Origin: a virus
Taxonomy: Duplodnaviria; Caudoviricetes
Reading direction: 5' to 3' (one strand)
IMG/VR virus record: IMGVR_UViG_643348562_000001
Span: 20,153-84,152 of that record
DNA: 64,000 nt
Of this stretch, positions 9,404 through 63,336 are shown one piece after another (the first letter of the stretch is position 1; each line of letters starts with the position of its first letter). Under the pieces are notes generated by a model, which saw only the letters and a list, made by a program, of their open reading frames with translations, was not told where the DNA came from and did no database searches. Both the position numbers and the translations under genes were made by a program.

Positions 9404-12205
9404 TTTATCTATTCAATGTCAAAAAAGAATTGATAAAAGTTATCCCTCGCAGAAATATCGTTAGTGCAATTCAAGAACTTGAAATAAATGGTCTGTATAC
9501 TGCTGAAATTGAAGTTCCTCTATTCTATAAAACTGAACAGGGTCAAATCTTCAATCATAAGAAATCATTCGATAACGCTTTATTTTTTGGTCATTTTGAC
9601 TATCGTAAAAAGTTTCAATTGTATAAAATTCATAATAGAAAAATTGATGGCAAACAACTGATTATTACAGGTGTTCATCTATTTTTCGACGAAGCTAAAG
9701 CGATGAGTGTTATTCGTGATAAGCGACTAATCAATGCTGATGCTCGAAACGTTGCGAATGTCGCGTTTGAGGGTACAGGATGGACTGTTCGAGATTACGA
9801 CACGACAAAAGAAAAAAATATAGATTTGTATTATATGACACCGATAGATGCTAGGAAATTAATTATCGAAGAATATAATGTAGAGTTTGACTATGACTTT
9901 TCTTTTGATGGCAGGAAGATTACTTCTAAAAATATTTATATTCGTAATAAATTAGGCAGATGGACTGGCGATAGATATCATTACGGAACAAACATACTCA
10001 GTATCACGCAAGAGCAAGATGATGCAGAAGTTTATACTGCGGCGATAGGTAGAGGGACCAGTGATGATACGAATACAGCTTTAAACGCTAAAGTCCTTTT
10101 TGATGATTTGACGTGGTCTAAAGATGGTTACAACAAGCCTTTAGGTCAAGATTATTTAGAAATCGTTAGCGCTACAGAAAAATATGGATACTATGACGAA
10201 AAAACAGGTAGAATAAAACCTCGAATAGCGATAATTGAATTTAGTGATATCCAAGATCAGAAAGTTTTAGCTGATAAAACCTGGGAGTGGTTAAAACAAA
10301 ACTGCGTGCCTAAAGTCACATACTCGACTACTGTTTCAAAGGTAGGAGAGTACTATTTAGGTGATGAAATCGCGATTATCTACAAAGAAATTGATATCAT
10401 TAAAAAAGCTCGTGTAGAAAATATGAGAGTGAACCTTCTTAATCACGACTTAACCGAATTAGGTTTAGGTGATTATACTTATTTTAAACAAGATAAATAT
10501 AGAGAGCGTATAAGCAATGAAATCAAGGAAACAAAAAAAGAAGCTAATAGCTACATTGTTAAACTCAAAAAAGAATTCGATGCAAACTTTGAAGAGCAAA
10601 CACTGAGTTTCGCTAAAGCTATTGAACAAGTAAAGATTAATGCGCAATCTGAAGTTGAATCGGCAGAAAAAAGACTGTCAGATGAAATAGATAATGGATT
10701 GAGTGCCTTAAAACAACCGAACGCGTTACCATCATCTGTTCTGCAAATAGACGAATTATTAATAAACAGGTTGATATCTGATAATATGTTCGCGAACACT
10801 TTAGGTTCAAATTATCTTTTTAGCGAGATCATAAAAACAAAATCTCTTGAAGCAGTTAATGCAAATATTTCAAATCTGAGGTCTAACATACTCACTTCTA
10901 ACGTGATTAAAGCAGAACACATTGATTCTGGCACAGCACTTATAGATAAATTATTTTCTAATAGTGCAAATATAACTAGATTGACGAGTAAGTCGGCATT
11001 TATCAAAGAAATACAAGCGATTGAGGTTATAGCTTATCGTCTTGAAGCGAGGGATAAACAGGCTAGTGTCAACATTGAAAATGGCTCAATCACAATGAAT
11101 CGTGACAATGGATCTAGAATGGATATCAGTTTGAATGGTATTCAAAGTTTTAACAATGGTGGTTCGTTACTTTTCAGCTTAACACCAACACTTGTAACAA
11201 CCTCTGCTGTAGGCACATCTGTAAGTAACGTTTACCTTGGCACAGCACCGAACGCAGAAGCACGTGTCGTTAATATGAATGGTATTCCTGGTGATGGTGA
11301 AATTGGCAGTTATGCATATAGACCAATACGAACTTTAGCTATTAAATTTCCGTTAAATGCAAATGGGTATATAGGGATTGATGGTAGCGAACTAAGGATA
11401 ATGTCAGATGGTTTGGTAGAAGGTGGATATAAAAGCGTTCGTGCTGACAAAGGATATTTCTCTACAGTTGATGCAAACAATGAAATTAGTGGTGCTCACT
11501 TCTATATCAGACCAAAACGTGGTGGGGAACTTCGAGCAACTTATAACGATGGGTGGAGAAACTTCTTATGCTAACTTTCGTTCAAACGGTATCTATGCAC
11601 CATGGATTGATTATAACGGACATATACCAGGATCACACTTTTATATTAGACCAGCGTATGGGGGAGAAGTACGTTTAACGGCTACTGGTACAACAAACAA
11701 TTGGGCTAACCTGCGTTCAGATGGCATTTACGCTCCCTGGATAGACTTCAATGGTCAAATTCCAGGCTCGCATTTGTATATTAGACCTGGCTCAGGTGGG
11801 GAGGTTAAGTTCACTAGAACTGGTACTACAGATGTCTGGGCAGATATTAGGTTCGGTAGTTGGAACGCAATGTCTCATGAAAAATATAAAAATAACATCG
11901 AAAAATGGAACTATAATGTATTAGGCATATATAAAAACGACTTAGTGTTACATTCATACAAAGTCAATTCTGAATCAGATACTTTATACGCTAGAATACA
12001 CCACGGTATTGTACTTAGAGAAAATTCAAACCTAGACCAATTCCCAGCGGAATGGAGAAATGGTGACGGTTTTGATGGTAATGAAGTCTTATGGTGGAAC
12101 ACGAAAGCTGTTCAAGAATTAGCGTTTGAGAATGATGAGTTAAGAAATAAGATTAGTGATTTAGAAAACAGATTAAAAATATTGGAGGATAAGTTAAATG
12201 GATAA
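9400..12205 (+). CDS. Tail-associated/receptor-binding protein with ~43-aa repeats and C-terminal S74-like chaperone; +1 G near 11551
   Basis: ORFs 9400-11574 and 11423-12205 join; alignment to the intact paralog at 53697-57092 (YNNGGDTSYA) shows one extra G. Confidence 0.85.
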
Positions 12206-12365
12206 TAATAATCAACCACAACGTAATTTAGAAAAAGAAGTGGCATTACTACAACAACAACTCATGATGGCGGTATCGGATAAAGTGATGTTACAAGCAA
12301 TGTTAGATGATGCTTTAGAAGAATTAGATCAAATTAAAAACGGTAATCAAGAAGTTGCAGAATAA
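12198..12365 (+). CDS. Small coiled-coil phage protein (55 aa)
   Basis: GGAGG RBS; near-identical copy at 57085-57252. Confidence 0.7.
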   Translation: MDNNNQPQRNLEKEVALLQQQLMMAVSDKVMLQAMLDDALEELDQIKNGNQEVAE

Positions 12366-12410
12366 TCTGTAGCTTCTTTTTTATAAATAAAAAACAGGAG
12401 GTCATTCAAA

Positions 12411-12686
12411 ATGACAGAAAAAATTCAAGAGTTTTATTTAGTAGAAAGAAACATCAACGGTGATGAAAGTTGTTTAACACGTAACTATTCGAATGGATTT
12501 GTTTCAGGCGCTACACCAAACACTGCTTTTAAGTTTAAAGAAGAAGAACAGGCGAAACAGTTCTGTAAGATGCAAAATATGTTAGCAGGTATCTTCGATA
12601 ATGGAACTAAGACATTCTACGTTAAACAAGATATTACACGTATTAAGTACACAGAAGATGGTCAAGTGGTAGAAGAAACGTTATAA
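12411..12686 (+). CDS. Hypothetical phage protein
   Basis: RBS; paralog at 57297-57575. Confidence 0.75.
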   Translation: MTEKIQEFYLVERNINGDESCLTRNYSNGFVSGATPNTAFKFKEEEQAKQFCKMQNMLAGIFDNGTKTFYVKQDITRIKYTEDGQVVEETL

Positions 12687-12699
12687 GAGGTGGTAAAAA

Positions 12700-13212
12700 A
12701 TGTGGATAACAATCGGAGGAATGAATTTGGAAAATATAGAGATGCTTAAAATTTATTTATATGGAGGAGATATCAGATTACTACACTTCTTATGTATATT
12801 GATGCTAGTAGACATCGTGACAGGTATCGCTAAAGCGGTTTATAACAAAAACTTATGGTCGAGAAAGTCATTATTCGGCTTTGCTAGAAAATTGATGGTA
12901 TTCTGTATCATCGTATTAGCGAATATTATTGATCAGATACTTCAATTGAATGGTGGATTGGTCATTGTCACGATTATGTTCTATATCGCAAATGAGGGAC
13001 TATCTATTGTTGAAAATTGTGCGCAGATGGGCGTATTAATCCCAACAAATATTTCGGAGAAGTTAGCAGTTATCTTAAGTGAGAATGATAAGCAGTCAAT
13101 CACAACTGAAGTGAAAGAAGAATTTACAGCTAAACATTCTAAAGACTTGCCAGGTGGACAGGTTGACGTAAGTGTTAAGGTTCAGTCAGAAAAAAACGAA
13201 GAAATAAATTAA
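12700..13212 (+). CDS. Holin (toxin secretion/phage lysis holin family, Phage_holin_4_1-like)
   Basis: DIVTGIAKA...SRKSLFGFARK...FYIANEGLSIVEN motifs with TM segments. Confidence 0.9.
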   Translation: MWITIGGMNLENIEMLKIYLYGGDIRLLHFLCILMLVDIVTGIAKAVYNKNLWSRKSLFGFARKLMVFCIIVLANIIDQILQLNGGLVIVTIMFYIANEGLSIVENCAQMGVLIPTNISEKLAVILSENDKQSITTEVKEEFTAKHSKDLPGGQVDVSVKVQSEKNEEIN

Positions 13213-13239
13213 GGCAGCTCACTATGAGTTGTCTTTTTT
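13212..13239 (+). terminator. Terminator-like hairpin between holin and endolysin
   Basis: AGGCAGCTCA-cta-TGAGTTGTCT then TTTTT. Confidence 0.65.
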
Positions 13240-13267: not shown

Positions 13268-14128
13268 ATGACATATAAAATTATTAATTCATGGTTACCA
13301 GCAAGCAAATATAGTTTAAAAGCACCTTTCTCAATGGATCCTGAATATATTACAGTTCACAATACAGGTAATACAGCGAGTGCTAGAGAAGAAGCAGCGT
13401 ATCATAACTCAAATAATAGCGAAACATCGTATCATGTAGTTATCGATGAAAATGAAGTACATCAATTAATTCCTTTCAGTCGTAACGCTTGGGATTCCGG
13501 AGATGGTAGAGGTAACGGAAACATGAAATCTATCGGAATCGAAATCGCACGTTCAATGGATAATGGATATAGTGGTCCTAAGTCACAACGTTATATGCAA
13601 GCAGAAGAAAACGCCGCGTTATATATCGCTCACGTTATGCACGAAAGAGGTTGGGATATGAGCCGACTAAAACGACATTATGATTGGTCGGGTAAAGACT
13701 GCCCTCACAAAATGCACGCTACAGGCACATATCAACAATTTAGAGATAAAGTTCAAAAGCATCTTGTCGCTTTAAATAACGGTAAAAAAGTTCAAGCAAG
13801 TACAGTTAAAAAACCGGTAAAGAAAGCACCTGCTAAAAATACGGGTGGTTGGCAAGTCAATCAGTACGGTACGAAGTGGAAAAACGAAAAAGGTACATTT
13901 ATTAATGGAAGTGAGCCTATTCAAGCCTATTACGTTGGACCATTTGTAATTGCTAAGAATAAAGCTGGGAAGTTACCTGCTAAAGCTACAGTTAAGTATG
14001 ATGAAGTAATGGTGCAAGATGGATATGTTTGGATCGCTTATGATGCGAATGATGGAAAGCGTATCTACTTACCAATCAGAACACATAAAAATGGCATTGA
14101 TGGACCACTTTGGGGAACAATTAAATAA
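13268..14128 (+). CDS. Endolysin: Amidase_2 (XlyA-like) plus SH3_5 cell-wall-binding domain
   Basis: ITVHNTGN, SIGIEI, HYDWSGKDCP zinc-amidase motifs; C-terminal YDEVMVQDGYVWIAY SH3b pattern. Confidence 0.9.
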   Translation: MTYKIINSWLPASKYSLKAPFSMDPEYITVHNTGNTASAREEAAYHNSNNSETSYHVVIDENEVHQLIPFSRNAWDSGDGRGNGNMKSIGIEIARSMDNGYSGPKSQRYMQAEENAALYIAHVMHERGWDMSRLKRHYDWSGKDCPHKMHATGTYQQFRDKVQKHLVALNNGKKVQASTVKKPVKKAPAKNTGGWQVNQYGTKWKNEKGTFINGSEPIQAYYVGPFVIAKNKAGKLPAKATVKYDEVMVQDGYVWIAYDANDGKRIYLPIRTHKNGIDGPLWGTIK

Positions 14129-14139
14129 GCATGATTACT

Positions 14140-14177
14140 AGCCCTGCACTCAAATTAATGAGTGCAGGGCTTTTTTT
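14140..14177 (+). terminator. Intrinsic terminator after endolysin
   Basis: AGCCCTGCACTCA...TGAGTGCAGGGCT plus a T run. Confidence 0.9.
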
Positions 14178-14179
14178 AT

Positions 14180-14257
14180 TTCGGTCATATACCCGAATAA
14201 TTTAAAATTCGGTTAAATAGCCGGATATTAGACTAATTAAAAGAGTTGTTGTATAAT
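14180..14257 (+). promoter_or_regulatory. Two TTCGG-N8-CCGRA palindromes followed by a sigmaA-type promoter (TAGACT-17-TATAAT)
   Basis: Read directly; same architecture at 63008-63085. Confidence 0.7.
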
Positions 14258-14263
14258 TATATT

Positions 14264-14435
14264 ACACGCAGCTTTATACAATACGCCGAAAAACACATGC
14301 GCTGGTCAACGTCGACTATGACCAATAAAATAGTTAGCTTGTCATTGAGTAGCTGCTTTGACTAAAAGATATTGTATATTGCCTGCAGCTCAAAGAACCA
14401 AAAGTTCAGACACCTATATTTATAGGTGTTTTTTT
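14264..14435 (+). ncRNA. Putative ~172-nt structured small RNA, copy 1
   Basis: Promoter upstream, ACACCTATA-tt-TATAGGTGT-T-run terminator, internal stems, near-identical copy at 63092-63263. Confidence 0.6.
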
Positions 14436-14481
14436 ATGCATTTAAAAGCACCTATCAATTAAGATGAGGTGCCTTTAAAAA

Positions 14482-14620: not shown

Positions 14621-14677
14621 ATCTACCGTATGCAGGTGTCTGAGTGGGAACGTGCCCAATATATGAAGCAGTATTAA
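14621..14677 (+). other. glnA: att core/junction: duplicated 3' end of glutamine synthetase gene (IYRMQVSEWERAQYMKQY*)
   Basis: Translation matches the conserved Firmicutes GlnA C-terminus (...QVxxWERxQYMxQY*); followed by a terminator at 14683-14716; lies between two prophages. Confidence 0.75.
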
Positions 14678-14731
14678 TAGAGAAAACCCTTTAACTGCAA
14701 TGGTTAAGGGGTTTTTATTTTGTAGAAACTT

Positions 14732-14785: not shown

Positions 14786-15940
14786 TTAGAATATGTTTTT
14801 TAGTGTATTTTCGTATAAAATTCTTGATTCTTCCTGTAGGTGCGGAGTGACATGTGCATAAATCCTTTCGGTCATTTCCATCGATTGATGTCCTAATCTT
14901 TCCTGGATAACTTTCATCGGGACATTAGCTTCTAATAAAAGTGTTGCATGAGTATGTCTCAGTTTGTGAACGGATATTTGTTGACCAAGAATCTTTTTAC
15001 TGCAATAAATCATCGTATTATGTATTGATGACCTTGATAGAGGTTTGCCGAATTCATTAACGAATAAGAAGTTATATTCATTTGAATACTCGCTGCCAAT
15101 AATTATCTTGTTTGTTTCATGTAGTTTCGTTAAGTTTAACATTTCATCGTATAATTCACGAGTAATATAAACTTTACGATGGTGTTTAGTTTTAGTGTTT
15201 CCTAATACGTCACGTTTCTGATCATATGATGAATCAACAGTTATATATAAGTTATTTTTATCGAAATCAGATAACTTCAATGCACAGGCTTCGCCGACAC
15301 GTAAGCCGGTCTCTATAATTAACCTGAATAAATAATAATGATAAATATTACGTCTTTTGACATCGGTAAGGAATGGTTTTATCAAGTCTTTTGGAATGTA
15401 CTCAGCTTTCTTTACTTTGTCAGTGATTCTGAATTCAATGTATTCAGCGGGATTAACTGATATTAATCCATCAAACTTTGCACGCTCCATCGCTCTAAAC
15501 ATTAATGAGTTTGTTTTTTTGATGGTCGAGATACTATAGTTATACTCAAAAAGTTTGTTTATTACTTTCTGTTGCATAGTAGGGGTTACTTTATCAATTC
15601 GAATATTTTCATCATGCAGCTTAACTTCTTCTATCAATTTCTTATTTTCATAGATTCGAATACTGAATAATCGCTTAGCACTCCATTTGTCGATATCTAT
15701 TGATGCCTGGGATACTTTTCCGACCCTATAAGTTTCTATATATTCATCTATGAAAGACTTAAGAGTAGGGATGTCAGTTTTACACTTATTTAGCTCAACA
15801 TCACGTTCTAAGTCTCGTGCTAACTTCTTAGCATCTCTTTCCTTCTTTACATTTTTCGAGATAGTCCTACGTTTACCATTCTCATCATAATAGTATACTC
15901 GCACACGATAGCCAGTACTAATCTTTTGAATAGAAGCCAT
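14786..15940 (-). CDS. int: Tyrosine integrase
   Basis: TGLRVGE, HKLRHTHAT, LGH, IYAHV catalytic motifs; N-terminal arm-binding domain. Confidence 0.97.
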   Translation of the reverse strand: MASIQKISTGYRVRVYYYDENGKRRTISKNVKKERDAKKLARDLERDVELNKCKTDIPTLKSFIDEYIETYRVGKVSQASIDIDKWSAKRLFSIRIYENKKLIEEVKLHDENIRIDKVTPTMQQKVINKLFEYNYSISTIKKTNSLMFRAMERAKFDGLISVNPAEYIEFRITDKVKKAEYIPKDLIKPFLTDVKRRNIYHYYLFRLIIETGLRVGEACALKLSDFDKNNLYITVDSSYDQKRDVLGNTKTKHHRKVYITRELYDEMLNLTKLHETNKIIIGSEYSNEYNFLFVNEFGKPLSRSSIHNTMIYCSKKILGQQISVHKLRHTHATLLLEANVPMKVIQERLGHQSMEMTERIYAHVTPHLQEESRILYENTLKNIF

Positions 15941-19857: not shown

Positions 19858-20203
19858 TTATAATTTCTTATTTCTCTTAGATCGCTCTACTAAGAAGGCT
19901 CCTTGTTCTAGCAGATTCTGAATAATTCTATCTTGTTCTTCTTTCGGTAGTTCATTTAAACCTTCGATATGGTTGAAAAACAAAGATTCAACTTTTACAT
20001 TGTTTAACTTTTCTCTACCATGTAATGCATCCTAAAGAAGTTTCGAATATATCTGCAATTTTCTTTTGAATATTAGCATCAGGAGTTCTTCTATCTTGCT
20101 CATAAGAAGCGTATGTTGTTTTTGCTACTCCTAGTTTTTCTGCCATTTGAGTTTGTGTATAACCATACTGCTTTCTTAATTTTTTTATATTCTGAGCAAA
20201 CAT
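19858..20203 (-). CDS. ImmR/CI-like XRE repressor, +1 base near 20031
   Basis: N-terminal XRE HTH; removing one C restores a 114-aa protein ending ...LVERSKRNKKL; divergent from cro. Confidence 0.85.
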
Positions 20204-56600: not shown

Positions 56601-57092
56601 AGTCTACGCTCGAATGGTATTTACGTGCCATGGATAGACTTCAATGGTCAAATTCCAGGATCACATTTGTATATTAGGCCGGGATCAGGTGGAGAAGTGA
56701 GATTCACCAAGACCGGAACGACTGACCAATTTATTAATATTAGGGCAAATGATGGTGACTTCAATCAGATTTCCTATAATAAATGGGTGCAAAAATCTAG
56801 AGAAGAATGGAAAACAGGTATTCGTAAGTGGGAAATGAATGCTTCTGAAGTTCTTATTAATGAAGTAGATATTTATGAATTCTATTATAAGAATGACCTA
56901 GACTACCTTACTAGAGGCTCGGTTATTGGTGATGGCTATAAAGTTCCTGATTTTTGGCTCTCAAAAAGCAAGAACGGAATAGACAACACTTCTGTAATCT
57001 GGACATTAGCAAAAGCATTACAGGAACAGATTAAAAGAAACAATGATTTAGAAAACAGATTAAAAATATTGGAGGATAAGTTAAATGGATAA
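53697..57092 (+). CDS. Tail spike/receptor-binding protein with internal repeats and S74-like chaperone
   Basis: Prophage-tail N-terminus (IKIGKNL..VITRLKPLG); repeats YIRPxxGGE..GIYxPWID; C-terminal SREEWKTGIRKW. Confidence 0.85.
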   Translation: MYKIILTNATNDNQKVVWDVKKDIKLLRSASMQKQEDGIDSVSISPVHNFVENSATFIQPYNTLIEIINEKTNVIEFKGRVLSPESEMTDSGLFTHELIFEGAEAYLKDSIQSYSFEFDKLPVENLKKVIAHHNNELKNEAYKHFKVGNVTVEKNIIPSDENYNEELKYFKRSDDKDTYETLMDLKEKYGGTFIFEPTNDVTLVHWLKETGNLTNTVIKIGKNLKSIQKKFDASEVITRLKPLGASSETANGDEIKLTIAEVNNGSPYIDIPQLIKLFGIQTGTVTFDDKHTPETLKKAAEDWIKEHEKKQARISLSLDALDLSYLKLDPDEFKIYNKHRVICPPLNIDEDLKIISIKVDLLKPYDKEVSFGERELGYAELEKERSIKNTNLIINKTVPGIIDRQTGGINRDVMVLNDYKITFEDLKLHQSNLLDEVNQILNSEYLVDNEVRADLLLKAQNVESLSNTIKDALESADERTINATKLVVLQNKMNAYRLSLKSFVIAKEGAKISLLKRLQILQSQYTEKKFSDTLKSVAEKFGLTVNQYNELIGEPNVVQKAISVVTEQTDSKLANYVKSQDYQTDKNGIVERLNNSDSERRQLSNQIADRVTITEYNNGIEAIEQNTDQKLSTMKTETLQDGKKISQEVSQQVFNTSSKTLNQTLSQYINSISTGHQFTYDENGNITNFTIGSSGIKLNGRVIDMNDGDVTIQNGVTTITDAYIPKLFSKKATVEYLDAIGITARTLQAKDKQASVNIENGSITMNRDSGARMDIGLDGIQSFNNGGSLRFSLTPTLVTTSAVGTSVSNVYLGAAPTGEARIVDMNGIPGDGAIGSYAYRPIRTLAIKFPLKANGYIGIDGNELRIMSDGLNDGGFKNIRADKGYFATVDMNNEINGTHFYIRPKPGGELRATYNNGGDTSYANIRSDGIYAPWIDYNGHIAGSHFYVRPAYGGEVRLTNTGTTDQFASLRSNGIYVPWIDFNGQIPGSHLYIRPGSGGEVRFTKTGTTDQFINIRANDGDFNQISYNKWVQKSREEWKTGIRKWEMNASEVLINEVDIYEFYYKNDLDYLTRGSVIGDGYKVPDFWLSKSKNGIDNTSVIWTLAKALQEQIKRNNDLENRLKILEDKLNG

Positions 57093-57252
57093 TAATAATC
57101 AACCACAACGTAACTTAGAAAAAGAAGTGGCATTACTACAACAACAACTCATGATGGCGGTATCGGATAAAGTGATGTTACAAGCAATGTTAGATGATGC
57201 TTTAGAAGAATTAGATCAAATTAAGAACGATAATCAAGAAGTTGCAGAATAA
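57085..57252 (+). CDS. Small coiled-coil protein (copy of 12198-12365)
   Basis: Near-identical sequence. Confidence 0.7.
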   Translation: MDNNNQPQRNLEKEVALLQQQLMMAVSDKVMLQAMLDDALEELDQIKNDNQEVAE

Positions 57253-57296
57253 TCTGTAGCTTCTTTTTTATAAATAAAAAACAGGAGGTCATTCAA

Positions 57297-57575
57297 ATGA
57301 CAGAAAAAATTCAAGAGTTTTACTTAGTAGAAAGAAATTCAAGTGGGTCAGAAAGTTGTTTAACACGCAATTATTCAAATGGATTTGTATCAGGCGCTAC
57401 ACCAAACACTGCTTTTAAGTTTAAAGAAGAGGAGCAAGCGAAACAGTTCTGTAAGATGCAGAATATGTTAGCAGCAATCTTCGACAATGGAACAAAAACT
57501 TTCTATGTAAAACAAGATGTTGAACGTACTAAGTACAATGAAAATGGGGAAGTAGTCGTAGAAGAAACGTTATAA
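57297..57575 (+). CDS. Hypothetical phage protein (copy of 12411-12686)
   Basis: Near-identical sequence. Confidence 0.75.
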   Translation: MTEKIQEFYLVERNSSGSESCLTRNYSNGFVSGATPNTAFKFKEEEQAKQFCKMQNMLAAIFDNGTKTFYVKQDVERTKYNENGEVVVEETL

Positions 57576-57588
57576 GAGGTGGTGAAAA

Positions 57589-58101
57589 ATGTGGATAACA
57601 ATCGGAGGAATGAATTTGGAAAATATCGAGATGCTTAAAATTTATTTATATGGAGGAGATATCAGATTACTACACTTCTTATGTATATTGATGCTAGTAG
57701 ACATCGTGACAGGTATTGCTAAAGCGGTGTATAACAAGAATTTATGGTCGAGAAAGTCATTATTCGGCTTTGCTAGAAAATTGATGGTATTCTGTATCAT
57801 CGTATTGGCTAACGTGATTGATCAGATACTTCAATTAAATGGTGGATTGGTCATCGTCACAATTATGTTCTACATCGCCAACGAGGGGCTTTCTATTATT
57901 GAAAATTGTGCACAGATGGGTGTGCTAGTACCTGCAAATATATCAGAGAAATTAGCAGTTATCTTAAGTGAGAATGATAAGCAGTCAATTACAACAGAAG
58001 TGAAAGAAGAATTCACAGCTAAACATTCAAAAGATTTGCCTGGGGGACAGGTTGATGTAAGCGTTAAAGTTCAGTCAGAAAAAAACGAAGAAATAAATTA
58101 A
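57589..58101 (+). CDS. Holin (Phage_holin_4_1-like), near-identical to 12700-13212
   Basis: Same motifs as the prophage 1 holin. Confidence 0.9.
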   Translation: MWITIGGMNLENIEMLKIYLYGGDIRLLHFLCILMLVDIVTGIAKAVYNKNLWSRKSLFGFARKLMVFCIIVLANVIDQILQLNGGLVIVTIMFYIANEGLSIIENCAQMGVLVPANISEKLAVILSENDKQSITTEVKEEFTAKHSKDLPGGQVDVSVKVQSEKNEEIN

Positions 58102-58206
58102 GGCAGCTCACTATACGAAGAGATTAAACAAGAAATAAAGACTATAAAAGCAGAAAAGATATCTTAAACAGTTGGATCAAACATCTTATTTAAAAGGAGA
58201 ATTCAA

Positions 58207-59169
58207 ATGATGACTGAGGTTAATAAATCTATATATCTAGATGTAGCAAGAAGATATTACGATATGCAATCTTTGTATGAAGTAGTAGATATTGTATACG
58301 AAAATGAACAGAAAGAACTCTTTCTGCACCTATCAGATAATGAAGCATTTAGGGTGGAGATGAATCTTTTTAAGAAGACACCTTATAAAGCGTATTCAAA
58401 GCAAGAAATTAATGATCTGTGTAAATACGCATATGAACGTAATGTAATGATCATCCCAGTGTTAGACATACCTTCGCATTCAGGGGGATGGTTGAATCTA
58501 CTCAAACTTAATGATGAAGAGAGATACAATAAGGTTGTCTCTGATTTTGATGAACACACTGTAAACTATTGGGACGATGGAGAGCCTATTAAATTTATTA
58601 AGAGTATGATTGACGAGATTGCAGATGCATTCAAAATTCCTGGATATAAAGGGGAACAGATATTTCACCTTGGAATGGATGAGGTGCCTGCTGCTATAAG
58701 TAATCAAAAATGGCTTTTTTGGTTTATGGAACATCTTTTCAAGCACGTTGAATCTCACAACTATATACCGGTGATATGGAACGATCAAGTAACCCCAAAG
58801 TTTCTAGAAATGGCTTTAGATGCTGGGATGAGAGACAGTTTAAGATTCAGTTATTGGCAACAAAGCCTAAAAGGTACTGTATCTCCTGATGATATAATGA
58901 ATAACTTCAAACTCTATAACGGAAACTCTTACCCTCAGACGTTCAGCGCAAAGACGTTAGATTCGAAGAAGGATATGGAATACATGAAACAGCATTCAGG
59001 GATTGATAAATTTAATGTTATAGGAGACATAACGTATGAAGCAAAAATAAGAAATGTTTGTGGCTCGTTACTTACGCTATGGGGAGAGGATTCAGAATCT
59101 CGTCCAGAAAAGGAAATTATCACAGAACTAAGAAGAATGTTTACCGCATTCGTACAGGAAGCTAAATAG
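58207..59169 (+). CDS. GH20 beta-N-acetylglucosaminidase, dispersin B-like
   Basis: LDVARRYY, LHLSDNE, IPVLDIPSH, FHLGMDE (catalytic DE), IWND, FSYW, GSLLTLWGED; no signal peptide. Confidence 0.88.
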   Translation: MMTEVNKSIYLDVARRYYDMQSLYEVVDIVYENEQKELFLHLSDNEAFRVEMNLFKKTPYKAYSKQEINDLCKYAYERNVMIIPVLDIPSHSGGWLNLLKLNDEERYNKVVSDFDEHTVNYWDDGEPIKFIKSMIDEIADAFKIPGYKGEQIFHLGMDEVPAAISNQKWLFWFMEHLFKHVESHNYIPVIWNDQVTPKFLEMALDAGMRDSLRFSYWQQSLKGTVSPDDIMNNFKLYNGNSYPQTFSAKTLDSKKDMEYMKQHSGIDKFNVIGDITYEAKIRNVCGSLLTLWGEDSESRPEKEIITELRRMFTAFVQEAK

Positions 59170-59245
59170 TAAGAGGATGTTAAAACATAAATGATAAGCA
59201 TTAGGCAGATAGCCTGATGCTTATTTTAATTGGAGGAATTTATAA

Positions 59246-59512
59246 ATGAATAAAGAACTACAGTTAGCTTTGACGCGTTTAGTCGTGCTATTAATCGCAT
59301 TAATCAATTCAGCTCTAGCGCACTATGGAAAGCCGTTAATTAAAAGTGATGAAACTTTTATCTACCAAACATTAAGTGACTTATTTTTAATTGGATCTAT
59401 TGCCTGGAGTTATTGGAGAAATAACAATATTACTCGCAATGCACAGCAGGCACAAGAATTTAAGAATGTATTAGATATCGAAAAAAACAACGAAAATATG
59501 GAGGAAAAATAA
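59246..59512 (+). CDS. Holin, SPP1 family
   Basis: Two TM segments then WSYWRNNNITRNAQQAQ. Confidence 0.85.
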   Translation: MNKELQLALTRLVVLLIALINSALAHYGKPLIKSDETFIYQTLSDLFLIGSIAWSYWRNNNITRNAQQAQEFKNVLDIEKNNENMEEK

Positions 59513-59514
59513 TT

Positions 59515-60420
59515 ATGGCTAAAAATAAAATCGGTACTTGGAATGGTGTTCCTGTTTATACAGATTTCTTACCTATCGGAACAAGAAGAACAGGACAAAG
59601 ATTGAACAGTGGTAATCCTAAATTCGCAGTATTCCACGACACAGGAAACCCTAACACAACAGCACAACAGAACGTGAACTACTATAAGAATACTTATATG
59701 CAACCATGGGATAGTGTTGCATCAGCACATATCTTTGTGGATGATACTGAATGTATTATCTGTATTCCTGTAACTGAAAAAGCATGGCATGTGATTTACA
59801 ATACACCAACAGATAACGCTTGGTATGGTGCAGATGCAAACGATGTAGCTTTTGGTGTTGAAGCATCATACTACAGTGATAGAAATAAATCTCTTAAATC
59901 TTTAGATAATGCTTGTCGAATTATGGCTGCGTTATGTAATTCGTGGGATATTAATCCACACACGAATATGCCAGGGCATCAAGATATTCAGGCCGACAAA
60001 CAAGACCCAGGTAATCTATTAGCTGCTTGCGGTTATAATAGACGTGATATGACTGTGATTGACAATCTAGTTGTGAAATATATGAATGGCGATGCACCTG
60101 TTAAGAAAGTAGCACCTGCACCTGAAAAAGTTGTGAAACAATCACCACCTGTTAAAAAACCTGCAACAAAAGGTTCTAAACGCATTAAGGCATGGTCAAA
60201 GAAACCTCACTATAAAGGAACGATTCAATATACTGCATCCTTGAGACAACGTTCAGGTAGTAATTTTAGTAACTATACGTTCAACAAAGAGATTGGAACA
60301 CTTAAAAAAGGCGAGACTGTCTATATCTTCGAAGAGATTCAAGATGCACAAGGTAATATATGGTGCAGAACATATTCGCCTAGCAATAACGGTTGGGTTC
60401 ATAAGCATACAATTAAATAA
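59515..60420 (+). CDS. Endolysin: Amidase_2 plus C-terminal SH3-like domain
   Basis: VFHDTGN, SAHIFVD, GHQDI..KQDPG motifs. Confidence 0.9.
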   Translation: MAKNKIGTWNGVPVYTDFLPIGTRRTGQRLNSGNPKFAVFHDTGNPNTTAQQNVNYYKNTYMQPWDSVASAHIFVDDTECIICIPVTEKAWHVIYNTPTDNAWYGADANDVAFGVEASYYSDRNKSLKSLDNACRIMAALCNSWDINPHTNMPGHQDIQADKQDPGNLLAACGYNRRDMTVIDNLVVKYMNGDAPVKKVAPAPEKVVKQSPPVKKPATKGSKRIKAWSKKPHYKGTIQYTASLRQRSGSNFSNYTFNKEIGTLKKGETVYIFEEIQDAQGNIWCRTYSPSNNGWVHKHTIK

Positions 60421-60754: not shown

Positions 60755-62119
60755 ATGTTAGATATTACAATAAAAAACATAGGGATATTAAATAATATAG
60801 AAATGAAAATAGATGGCATTACAGTAGTAGGAGCAAAAAATGATAGTGGTAAAAGCACAATCTCTAAAGTGCTAGGCACATCATTGTTAAGTATGAATAA
60901 ATATAAAGATGTATTTCTTGATTATATTAATGATCAAGTCAGAAGTATCTTTTTTAAAATCGAAGGAACGTTAGAAAATAACTTGAATAATCATGGTTCA
61001 CAAATACTAAAAACGATTGATGAATTACCTTTAGAATATAAAAATTATTTTAACCTTGGCACATTTGAGCCATATAATATTTATATCGATTTAAGAATAA
61101 GAAGCACAAATGTTAAGGATATTGATAATAGAATAGATAAAATGATTAGAGTATTTTCATTTATTAAAAATCATTTTTTTGATTATATAACTGATAATGA
61201 TAAAAATAGGTTATCTAGCTTAATAAAAGATTTAGATGACATTAAAGGAATTAAAATAAAAGATGTAGAAGAAACTTTACTTTTAAGATTTTTTGCAAAA
61301 AGTTTTAGAGAAAATCTAGTTAATTTTCATTCTTTTGAACCATCAAGGATTTCAATTAAAGAGAATAGCAATACGATCTTTGAAATGAATTTTGATAAGC
61401 AAAATCGTCTAAAGAAACATTTTATAGGAAATACTTCTATTAAAAATATAGCATATATAGAATCTCCTCAAATTATAGACCATTTATTTGAATCTATACT
61501 GAATAGATTTGATGATAGTAATAAATTAAAGTACACTAATCAACTTCAATATATGTTGACTAACCAATTTAAAAATAATCCATTATTTGATGATAATTCA
61601 AATAGAAATTTTGTATTAAATAAGATATTTGAAATAATTGAAGGTGAGATGAAGGCAGAAACAAGCGAAACTATAGATGAAATATATTTTCAAAAAGGGA
61701 ACTATAGAATTGAAACGATTAACGTAGCTACTGGAATAAAATCGTTTTCGCTGATTCAACTATTACTAAAAAATAATTGGGTTAATGATGAAATGCTGAT
61801 AATTATAGATGAGCCTGAAATTAATTTACACCCAGAATGGCAAGTTAAATATGCAGAAATATTAGTTCTAATACAAAAGTATATGGGATGTAAGATATAT
61901 ATAAATACTCATAGCAGTTATATAATTGAGGCGATAGATTTATATTCCAAAAAATATGATCTCAAAAGTCAAACTAATTATTATATGCTAGATGAATACT
62001 CATCTGAATTTTTGGATAATGATTTCCGACCTATATTTAAACAACTAAATGGTGCATTTGATATTTTAGACGAAGAAAAAATAAATGATTTTTTAAATTT
62101 TGGTACAGAAAATGAGTAA
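60755..62119 (+). CDS. ABC-type ATPase (AAA_15/AAA_21 family)
   Basis: GAKNDSGKST Walker A-like, ATGIKSF signature-like, IIIDEPEINLHP Walker B, THS H-loop. Confidence 0.9.
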   Translation: MLDITIKNIGILNNIEMKIDGITVVGAKNDSGKSTISKVLGTSLLSMNKYKDVFLDYINDQVRSIFFKIEGTLENNLNNHGSQILKTIDELPLEYKNYFNLGTFEPYNIYIDLRIRSTNVKDIDNRIDKMIRVFSFIKNHFFDYITDNDKNRLSSLIKDLDDIKGIKIKDVEETLLLRFFAKSFRENLVNFHSFEPSRISIKENSNTIFEMNFDKQNRLKKHFIGNTSIKNIAYIESPQIIDHLFESILNRFDDSNKLKYTNQLQYMLTNQFKNNPLFDDNSNRNFVLNKIFEIIEGEMKAETSETIDEIYFQKGNYRIETINVATGIKSFSLIQLLLKNNWVNDEMLIIIDEPEINLHPEWQVKYAEILVLIQKYMGCKIYINTHSSYIIEAIDLYSKKYDLKSQTNYYMLDEYSSEFLDNDFRPIFKQLNGAFDILDEEKINDFLNFGTENE

Positions 62120-62717
62120 ATTATCAATTATTAGCTTAAATAAAATTACAGAACTAAAGAATAAGCGAATAGATACTTTTAAAAATATATCATATAGCAA
62201 AGGTAATTGTTTAGTAGAAAGTAAAAAGAATGCTCATGATTTTGATAAGTTATATGATGATTATTGTAAATCTGAAGGTACTAAAAATAAACCTACCGCA
62301 GATGCATTAGTAACTAAAAGTAATTGTTATTTTTTTATTGAATTTAAAAATGCAGCAGGTGTTTCCAAAGATATTTTAAATAGTATATTTAATAAAATGG
62401 TTAGGAGTCCTGAATGCTTAGGCGATATTTTAGTAAAGTATAATAAAATAAAAAGATGGGAACTAGTTTATAAAAGAAATATGCAATTTATAGCTGTATA
62501 TTCGTTAAAACATTTTAAATCACACATGATACAAACTACTGAGGGTCATACTGTAAATGTCACTGTTAATCAAAAAATGAGGACACGAGATAAAACTATT
62601 ATAAGCCACAATAAAGTTCTTAATGATTATATGGAATCTAACAAAGGATATTATAACAAAGTATTATGTATAGATAATGAAGCATTCGAACAATTCGCTA
62701 ATGTATTATGTCGATAA
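62112..62717 (+). CDS. Putative PD-(D/E)xK nuclease partner
   Basis: PTADAL...FFIEFKN motif; ATGAGTAA overlap with the ATPase stop. Confidence 0.6.
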   Translation: MSKLSIISLNKITELKNKRIDTFKNISYSKGNCLVESKKNAHDFDKLYDDYCKSEGTKNKPTADALVTKSNCYFFIEFKNAAGVSKDILNSIFNKMVRSPECLGDILVKYNKIKRWELVYKRNMQFIAVYSLKHFKSHMIQTTEGHTVNVTVNQKMRTRDKTIISHNKVLNDYMESNKGYYNKVLCIDNEAFEQFANVLCR

Positions 62718-63007
62718 AGTATCATATCCTTGCTTTCTAAAATTTAAGTAACTACAAAAAAACGACAACAATACTACAAAAGATATCATTCTATGAAGTT
62801 TAAAATTTCAGTGAGGGAAGTAAAAACCTTTGATAAAACTGTATTTTGAATTTTACTGAATGTTATTTTTTGCTATACGTGATATGGTCATGATGAATCT
62901 GTTAAGAACAAAGTTGAAAAGTAAACTAAAACATAAGGTCTTTAAAGTTCATTACTTATCTGTCATACCATCTGCAAAAAAGAGCTTACCTAAATAAGGT
63001 AGTTTTT

Positions 63008-63085
63008 TTCGGGTAAATAACCGAATATTTAAAAATTCGGTTAAATAGCCGAATATTTGATTAAACAAGTAAATTGTCGTATAAT
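63008..63085 (+). promoter_or_regulatory. Two TTCGG-N8-CCGAA palindromes and TTGATT-17-TATAAT promoter
   Basis: Same layout as 14180-14257. Confidence 0.7.
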
Positions 63086-63091
63086 TATATT

Positions 63092-63263
63092 ACACGCAGC
63101 TTTATACAATACGCCGAAAAACACATGCGCTGGTCAACGTCGACTATGACCAATAAAACAGTTAGTTTGTCATTGAGTGACTTCTTTGACTAAAAGATAT
63201 TATATATTGCCTGCAGCGCAAAGCACCAAAAGTTCAGACACCTATATTTATAGGTGTTTTTTT
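63092..63263 (+). ncRNA. Putative ~172-nt structured small RNA, copy 2
   Basis: Near-identical to 14264-14435, same terminator. Confidence 0.6.
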
Positions 63264-63336
63264 ATACTTAAAAGGCACCTTACTGATTATAGTAGGGTGC
63301 TTTTTGAATCATATTAATATAATATCCTTGTATTTA

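Follow-up and report, generated by a model that had tools for sequence, protein, structure and literature searches.

The best-described relatives of the enzyme considered here are the dispersins. DispTs2, DispTs3, DispSf, DispLp and DspB hydrolyse synthetic and natural poly-β-1,6-N-acetylglucosamine (PNAG) and also aryl β-linked N-acetylglucosamine (β-GlcNAc) substrates (PMC11883664). On biofilms, there is synergy between LysK, an endolysin applied exogenously, and a PNAG depolymerase (PMC6116285), and phage T7 engineered for intracellular DspB, which is freed at lysis, removes more biofilm, as summarized in PMC11357414. Here we describe a predicted β-N-acetylglucosaminidase of the dispersin subfamily of GH20 that is encoded inside the lysis cassette of a prophage. 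The gene lies in a window of 64,000 nt, positions 20,153–84,152 of IMGVR_UViG_643348562_000001, which is an 84-kb IMG/VR provirus record. This window contains two tandem prophages of Macrococcoides caseolyticum, and the host is a Macrococcus, not a Staphylococcus. Macrococcus caseolyticus is a dairy and skin bacterium. We give about an even chance to the reading that the protein is a soluble cytoplasmic GH20 enzyme, carried as optional cargo by temperate siphoviruses, which is freed at lysis and cleaves a β-GlcNAc glycan.

The GH20 gene (58207–59169, plus strand) encodes 320 residues and is preceded by a ribosome-binding site, AAAGGAG (58193–58199, plus strand), which lies 7 nt 5′ of the ATG and is invariant in relatives. 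An earlier note on this DNA had placed the gene at 58102–59223; it is indeed there, but that range adds an upstream spacer and a downstream hairpin to the true open reading frame (ORF). All seven motifs that had been quoted from the protein occur in the translation in the order given: LDVARRYY (residues 11–18), LHLSDNE (40–46), IPVLDIPSH (83–91), FHLGMDE (153–159), IWND (190–193), FSYW (214–217) and GSLLTLWGED (286–295). The likeness to GH20 and dispersin B that was read from them is borne out in both sequence and fold. The ORF matches Pfam Glyco_hydro_20 (PF00728) with an E value of 1.9e-22 and 80.5 bits against a cut-off of 22.3. The top four sequence matches among all solved structures are dispersins: DispTs3 (8QAK, E 6e-48), DispTs2 (8QB6, E 5e-43), DispLp (8QCE, E 4e-19) and DspB (1YHT, E 7e-12). 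The AlphaFold2 model, for which 45 relatives served as input, is a (β/α)8 barrel with a pLDDT of 95.2 and a pTM of 0.93, and the six structures closest to it are all chains of these four enzymes, with template-modelling (TM) scores of 0.86–0.91. The score is 0.91 for DispTs3 and DispTs2 and 0.86–0.87 for DispLp and DspB, compared with at most 0.76 for other GH20 enzymes. A database protein with 96% identity bears the name 'family 20 glycosylhydrolase [Macrococcoides caseolyticum]', and the family is small, with 11 sequences at E ≤1e-30 among 1.84 billion representatives. In the tree, the window protein nests in a 14-row clade together with secreted Staphylococcus- and Terribacillus-type dispersins and phage forms; the support of 98 in the Shimodaira–Hasegawa-like approximate likelihood-ratio test (SH-aLRT) backs this clade as a whole and not the branching order inside it. 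P0012, a secreted member of the same 14-row clade, matches 8QB6 at E 1e-96.

We compared the active-site residues by mapping the residue list of PMC11883664 through HMMER and MAFFT alignments. The catalytic pair for substrate-assisted catalysis, Asp158–Glu159, is kept and aligns with Asp183–Glu184 in DspB and Asp160–Glu161 in DispTs2. Arg15 corresponds to Arg27 of DspB, the arginine that binds O3 and O4 of the −1 sugar, and His91 and the tryptophans Trp191, Trp217 and Trp292 are also retained. The six residues found only in dispersins (His53, Asp116, Trp216, Asp218, Trp330 and Gly331 in DspB) are present as His41, Asp87, Trp191, Asp193, Trp292 and Gly293. Glu294 matches Glu332 of DspB, and the loop Asn238-x-Asn240-x-Tyr242 matches Asn271-x-Asn273-x-Tyr275. 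The assignment to the GH20 family is firm, with one canonical residue missing, which is considered below.

The protein lacks a signal peptide, as the earlier note had stated. Its catalytic domain starts at residue 6, the N-terminus is non-hydrophobic and no transmembrane-like segment is present. Within the first 45 residues, the 12-residue hydropathy peaks at 0.77 in P0001, which is 96% identical to the window protein, versus 1.9–3.7 in the secreted relatives. Nearly all bacterial relatives bear a typical signal peptide or anchor, and the signal-less members near the window protein are phage-borne. Three other signal-less GH20s (P0048, P0050 and P0038) are encoded near bacterial genes for sugar metabolism or wall synthesis and are not part of a lysis cassette. 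Neither an N-terminal anchor nor a fibre domain was found on the window protein, which is a bare catalytic domain, whereas relatives encoded in tail modules bear an N-extension of 31–55 residues or a collagen stalk.

The gene is located near the right end of the second prophage (prophage B), 3′ of the tail genes, and its neighbours are as had been described. On its 5′ side lies a 170-residue Phage_holin_4_1 holin with transmembrane-like segments (57589–58101, plus strand; Pfam E 1e-31; TIGR01593 at 89.5 bits against a cut-off of 40.2). On its 3′ side follow an 88-residue SPP1-type holin (59246–59512, plus strand; Pfam Holin_SPP1 E 6e-17; phrog_263 holin) and an endolysin in which Pfam recognizes an Amidase_2 domain and an SH3b_T wall-binding domain (59515–60420, plus strand). 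The first prophage (prophage A) ends at 14128 with a Prophage_tail gene, a Phage_holin_4_1 holin (12700–13212) and an Amidase_2/SH3_5 endolysin whose start is probably 13269. The order of GH20 and SPP1-type holin recurs in 11 other M. caseolyticus proviruses (L001, L010–L019), which carry GH20 at 96–98% amino-acid identity and have the SPP1-type holin at identical spacing 3′ of it in every case. The endolysins are swapped among the carriers, being Amidase_2 with SH3b_T, CHAP with SH3b_T, or Amidase_2 with LysM and CW_7.

The gene on the 5′ side tells a different story from the placement 'between two holins' that the earlier note had emphasized. In nine of the 11 relatives it encodes a 95-residue DUF7365/phrog_1296 protein (annotated as a holin) that combines a single membrane helix at the N-terminus with a coiled coil, and the DUF7365 allele adjoining GH20 is 100% identical in all its carriers. 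The holin_4_1 gene takes this position in the other two and in the window, that is, in three of the 12 GH20-bearing prophages. Of the DUF7365 gene, the window still has the last residues and the stop codon in the spacer 58102–58206: an orphan 3′ remnant of the gene (58115–58167, plus strand), recognized by DNA alignment, reads in frame 0 as the C-terminal ...EEIKQEIKTIKAEKIS*. The stretch 57044–58114 is 92% identical to 12157–13225 of prophage A, and this identity stops just past the holin stop codon. The arrangement is thus a recombination joint, at which the end of a holin_4_1 cassette was joined, inside DUF7365, to a cassette of DUF7365, GH20 and holin_SPP1. A relationship of DUF7365 to XhlA was considered and rejected, since no Pfam link was found even at E values up to 10.

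Comparison with proviruses that have the same holin shows how GH20 sits in the cassette. Among 36 IMG/VR proviruses bearing this SPP1-type holin, GH20 is present in ten and absent from 26; it is therefore optional cargo and is not needed for lysis. In at least 15 of the proviruses without GH20, a 106-residue DUF7365/phrog_1296 protein is encoded 43 nt before the SPP1-type holin. Because DUF7365 directly precedes the same holin there, GH20 has been inserted inside the cassette, the basic order of which is membrane protein, holin and endolysin, with GH20 between the first two in about a quarter of these phages. The slot before the SPP1-type holin (about 3040–3460 in L027–L062) is an exchange hot spot with at least four alternatives, namely the 106-residue DUF7365 protein, a 133-residue phrog_2990 protein, a 140-residue membrane protein without a family, and DUF7365 with GH20. 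The GH20 block has a nucleotide identity of 97.6–99%, with a synonymous divergence (dS) of 0.02–0.06, compared with 75–97% (dS 0.15–1.3) for the adjoining holin gene, and this uniformity fits a recent spread by recombination. The ratio of nonsynonymous to synonymous divergence (dN/dS) of GH20 among the proviruses is 0.19–0.55, indicating purifying selection.

Because of its position in the cassette, its linkage to the holin, the absence of an export signal or virion anchor and the purifying selection on its gene, a soluble enzyme released by lysis fits the data best, and release by lysis, as proposed in the earlier note, is retained as the most suitable reading. The enzyme would be made late, together with the holin and the endolysin. 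Having no export signal, it would be kept in the cell until these two open the envelope, and it would then be freed along with the progeny virions. Outside, it would hydrolyse a β-linked GlcNAc glycan in the vicinity of the lysed cell, most likely a PNAG-type β-1,6 polymer of the surrounding biofilm. This substrate is plausible by analogy with the characterized dispersins; the alternative would be β-GlcNAc on wall glycopolymers. The phage would benefit because its virions could diffuse off and reach new hosts.

Several observations weigh against this reading, and the first concerns catalysis. The catalytic Asp–Glu pair is intact, as the earlier note had observed, but the active site departs from the canonical one at a position that had escaped notice: the tyrosine that forms a hydrogen bond with the acetamido oxygen (Tyr278 in DspB and Tyr247 in DispTs2) is replaced by Thr245. 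In DspB, mutating four pocket aromatics, Tyr278 included, cuts activity 5- to 2400-fold (PMC11357414). The replacement may make the enzyme weaker, or it may reshape the N-acyl pocket. Threonine occupies this column throughout the window protein's own clade, and the tyrosine is kept in 33 of 40 relatives outside that clade, including the secreted P0006, P0007, P0009, P0012 and P0013. All of the phage-borne GH20s examined are without the tyrosine, with threonine in the collagen-fused P0011 and in P0008, the cluster to which the PSU6 tail-fibre protein belongs, and valine in P0010, the copy of an SPbeta-like phage. The signal-bearing P0015 has alanine at the same column.

A second point is that a terminator-like hairpin parts GH20 from the SPP1-type holin. 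It has a 14-bp stem followed by a U tract (59193–59229, plus strand; −21.2 kcal/mol, z −4.6) and is kept in all GH20 proviruses. Prophage A has a like hairpin with six T between its only holin and its endolysin; late transcription must therefore pass through such hairpins, and they do not mark GH20 as a separate unit. The third point concerns the substrate. According to PMC6008420, the ica locus for polysaccharide intercellular adhesin (PIA) occurs in M. goetzii, M. epidermidis and M. bohemicus; no such locus is given there for strain CCM 7927 (M. caseolyticus subsp. hominis), the one strain of this species analysed, and this makes PNAG doubtful as the host's own matrix. No PgaC or IcaA match was found in the 84-kb provirus record, and a scan of genome contigs for host PNAG genes gave only distant matches in metagenome-assembled genomes. 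Other targets may be the matrix of neighbouring cells, PNAG from an unrecognised locus, or wall β-GlcNAc; the last of these would make the enzyme a receptor-destroying one.

The last of these points comes from a chromosomal copy. A 79% identical bare GH20 is encoded between osmC and rpsD in a Macrococcus-like species (L008 7884–9424, and L009), with no holin or endolysin nearby and with its own bidirectional terminator. This copy was captured from a phage, since a DUF7365 stub remains upstream, and with a dN/dS of 0.065 relative to the window gene it is still under purifying selection. Because it is maintained without lysis genes, the enzyme can be useful without phage lysis. The HutH adjoining this copy has at most 82% identity to any named HutH.

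Among relatives in other phages, the nearest outside the species are 52% and 48% identical, have 352 and 351 residues with a non-hydrophobic N-extension of 31 residues, and are located among tail-fibre and baseplate genes. In Staphylococcus myophages (Kayvirus MCE-2014 and Baoshanvirus PSU4/5), a collagen-repeat stalk is fused to GH20 in proteins annotated 'tail fiber protein', and the MCE-2014 protein is the sole strong viral structural match in BFVD. PSU6 and an SPbeta-like phage have GH20 forms of 381–382 residues. In Staphylococcus phage vB_SurM-PSU4 (L003 70–2349), a lipase/acylhydrolase-domain protein and an S8 serine peptidase are annotated about 3 kb upstream of the collagen–GH20 gene, and these genes may form a cluster of matrix-degrading enzymes. 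The lysis-cassette arrangement is absent from 50,697 phage records, and no description of a natural phage GH20 or dispersin was found in the literature searched. The earlier note's impression that the arrangement had not been described is therefore upheld within the papers and cultured-phage records searched.

The alternative that survives best, which the earlier note had raised for wall teichoic acid, is that the enzyme edits receptors or wall glycopolymers by stripping β-GlcNAc from wall or lipoteichoic acid or another wall glycan; we regard it as possible but rather unlikely. It could act on debris after lysis, so that progeny are not trapped, or on lipid-linked precursors in the cytoplasm of the lysogen, which would lead to superinfection exclusion. 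In staphylococcal siphoviruses, teichoic-acid GlcNAc is a common receptor, and the glycosylation that adds it is cytoplasmic. The lack of a reported ica locus in the analysed strain speaks for this alternative, as does the retention of the signal-less chromosomal copy without lysis genes. The collagen-fused relatives and those in baseplate or fibre modules point the same way, since enzymes in such places usually target receptor-bearing glycans. Dispersins also cleave aryl β-GlcNAc, so the aglycon is not strictly constrained, and the Tyr-to-Thr or Tyr-to-Val change common to all phage-borne copies hints at a substrate shift from the secreted enzymes. However, the dispersin-specific residues are all kept and the nearest characterized enzymes are PNAG hydrolases. 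For expression in the lysogen, no sigma-70-like site was found 5′ of GH20, where the region is poorer in such sites than shuffled sequences, although the scan may miss phage-specific promoters. Wall glycopolymers of Macrococcus were found to be undocumented in the literature searched. A broader version of this idea takes all of the phage-borne, Tyr-less dispersin-like GH20s as a functionally shifted group, the target of which would be a host-wall GlcNAc glycopolymer and not classical PNAG. The bare Macrococcus enzyme would then be a lysis-coupled receptor- or matrix-destroying enzyme that frees progeny from debris and matrix, as influenza neuraminidase does, and a natural counterpart of T7 carrying DspB. 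We put this version forward tentatively, as an unlikely one.

Next comes a virion-associated depolymerase, which would be a tail component that clears a path through matrix or capsule as infection begins, in the manner of classical tail-spike depolymerases. The gene does come after the tail module, which is closed by a 55-residue coiled-coil ORF (57085–57252, plus strand) that has no Pfam or PHROG family and is kept in related proviruses. The 52% and 48% identical relatives in tail-fibre and baseplate modules, the collagen–GH20 proteins of the myophages and a weak PHROG match of the window protein to a tail-fibre family also favour a place on the virion. Against this, the window protein is a bare catalytic domain without the N-extension of the tail-module forms. 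A terminator-like hairpin with a 13-bp stem and a following T run (57236–57265, plus strand), the gene of a 92-residue phrog_1747 protein present in most relatives (57297–57575, plus strand) and the holin all intervene between the tail genes and GH20. GH20 also does not co-vary with the tail genes: it is 96–98% identical among carriers, while their large tail proteins are 32–97% identical, and it is linked to the holin and not to a type of tail. A virion enzyme is thus improbable, and lysis release remains preferred.

The earlier note had also proposed that the enzyme is exported through the extra holin. In this scheme, living lysogens would secrete GH20 without lysis through the upstream DUF7365 protein or the TcdE-family holin_4_1, and the genes would form a lysogenic-conversion module for biofilm dispersal. 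A holin-like membrane protein always precedes GH20, the adjoining DUF7365 allele is invariant among carriers, holin_4_1 matches TIGR01593, 'toxin secretion/phage lysis holin', and GH20 has no signal peptide, all of which would suit such a route. DUF7365, however, belongs to the lysis cassette, since it precedes the same holin where GH20 is absent, and the chromosomal copy retains only a stub of it. The holin_4_1 gene is the only holin of the ordinary cassette of prophage A and was acquired by recombination; as a replacement of DUF7365 that is common to prophage A and occurs in so few of the GH20 prophages, it does not fit the role of a dedicated exporter. The lack of a promoter-like site before GH20 also argues against expression in the lysogen. 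Export through the upstream holin is unlikely, and the module as a whole is quite improbable. That the protein is an auxiliary peptidoglycan hydrolase, an N-acetylglucosaminidase aiding the amidase as a second endolysin, is very improbable even though the cassette endolysin has a single catalytic domain, since GH20 has no wall-binding domain, no GH20 enzyme is known to serve as an endolysin, Glu294 (Glu332 in DspB) binds O4 of the −1 sugar and so disfavours β-1,4 endo-cleavage, and the 26 same-holin proviruses without GH20 lyse without it.

Some further features of the locus were recorded. A 267-nt contig assembled from food-fermentation RNA (an oligo-dT library) covers 58611–58877 within GH20, where carry-over of DNA is possible. 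A cDNA-like contig from one public run covers 57786–58139 at 99.7% identity, that is, the 3′ half of holin_4_1 and 25 nt past the joint, and it begins with a sequence resembling a template-switch oligo and finishes at its 3′ end in a run of A. The latter contig hints that the mosaic is transcribed somewhere, although internal priming is possible. Because of possible DNA carry-over and internal priming, neither contig was counted as evidence of expression, and no isolate RNA-seq run was found to contain the stretch.

Prophage B starts with an integrase gene (14786–15940), and the repeat common to the right ends of both prophages stops at 63280. This repeat is a stretch of 279 nt with 90% identity at 14175–14453 and 63003–63280. 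A fragment resembling the C-terminus of GlnA (...EWERAQYMKQY*) lies near 14640–14700, at the junction of the two prophages. Integration in comGC, as in phiMC1, was considered and rejected, since the ends of the prophage lack the att sequence of phiMC1 and the GlnA fragment is at the junction. Downstream of the endolysin, 60755–62717 is a low-GC (27%) unit of two genes, the first for an AAA_15/AAA_21 ATPase with PADLOC matches to HEC-02A, PD-T4-4_A and PtuA, and the second, overlapping, for a 205-residue protein without a family. This unit is likely to be an anti-phage defence moron. Related proviruses hold other genes at the site, such as SocA_Panacea in L001.

Finally, we compared the locus with known systems. 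DispTs2 and DispTs3 of Terribacillus, DispSf of Mammaliicoccus and DspB of Aggregatibacter are, like the window protein, single-domain (β/α)8 GH20 enzymes (TM 0.87–0.91). They have in common with it the catalytic Asp–Glu pair, the arginine, the three tryptophans, the Glu332 equivalent, the dispersin-only residues and the clade in the tree. The predicted enzyme of the window differs by an identity of about 30% in the structural alignment and by the threonine in place of the acetamido-binding tyrosine. Moreover, the characterized dispersins are secreted, whereas the window protein has no signal peptide and is encoded by a prophage inside a lysis cassette. For work on anti-biofilm enzymes, it offers a dispersin scaffold that is small, single-domain and cytoplasmic by nature and that comes from a Gram-positive phage, and the Tyr-to-Thr change in the phage copies poses a concrete question about catalysis and specificity in GH20. 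The proteins of MCE-2014 (gp017), PSU4/5 and PSU6 are phage GH20s of the same clade with 27–30% identity and a TM score of 0.91, and they have lost the tyrosine as well. However, they carry a collagen stalk or a 55-residue N-domain, are encoded away from lysis genes and are presumably virion fibres, while the window enzyme is bare and lies in the cassette.

Among lysis-cassette enzymes, LysB of mycobacteriophages offers a parallel: it is an extra enzyme that acts on an envelope layer other than peptidoglycan, is dispensable for lysis and helps release. The window GH20 would likewise be an extra lysis-cassette enzyme for a non-peptidoglycan layer. LysB, however, is an esterase on the mycolyl-arabinogalactan link, whereas the window protein is a predicted glycosidase that would act on a GlcNAc glycan, and its host lacks an outer mycolate layer. 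Phage depolymerases are known almost only as virion parts. Dpo7 of vB_SepiS-phiIPLA7 (PMC4658415, as cited in PMC6116285) resembles the window enzyme in being a phage enzyme that degrades staphylococcal extracellular polysaccharide. It differs in being a pre-neck appendage of the virion, 'non-dispersin-B-like' and of unknown target according to the account in PMC6116285, neither a GH20 enzyme nor part of a lysis cassette. The placement of the window GH20 is conserved and, as far as the records and papers searched go, undescribed, and the predicted product is a phage-encoded dispersin-family glycan depolymerase that is new in both its form and its location. If the host truly makes no PNAG, the existence of this enzyme suggests either an unrecognised GlcNAc glycan in Macrococcus or an action on the matrix of neighbouring staphylococci.

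A functional parallel is T7 carrying DspB (Lu and Collins 2007, as summarized in PMC11357414), in which a dispersin is also intracellular, lacks export and is freed by lysis. That system is a human design in a lytic coliphage, whereas the window GH20 is natural, optional (ten of 36 proviruses) and carried by temperate Macrococcus phages. If our reading is true, phages also devote genes to removing matrix or wall glycan as they leave the cell, a strategy that synthetic biologists built by hand in 2007.

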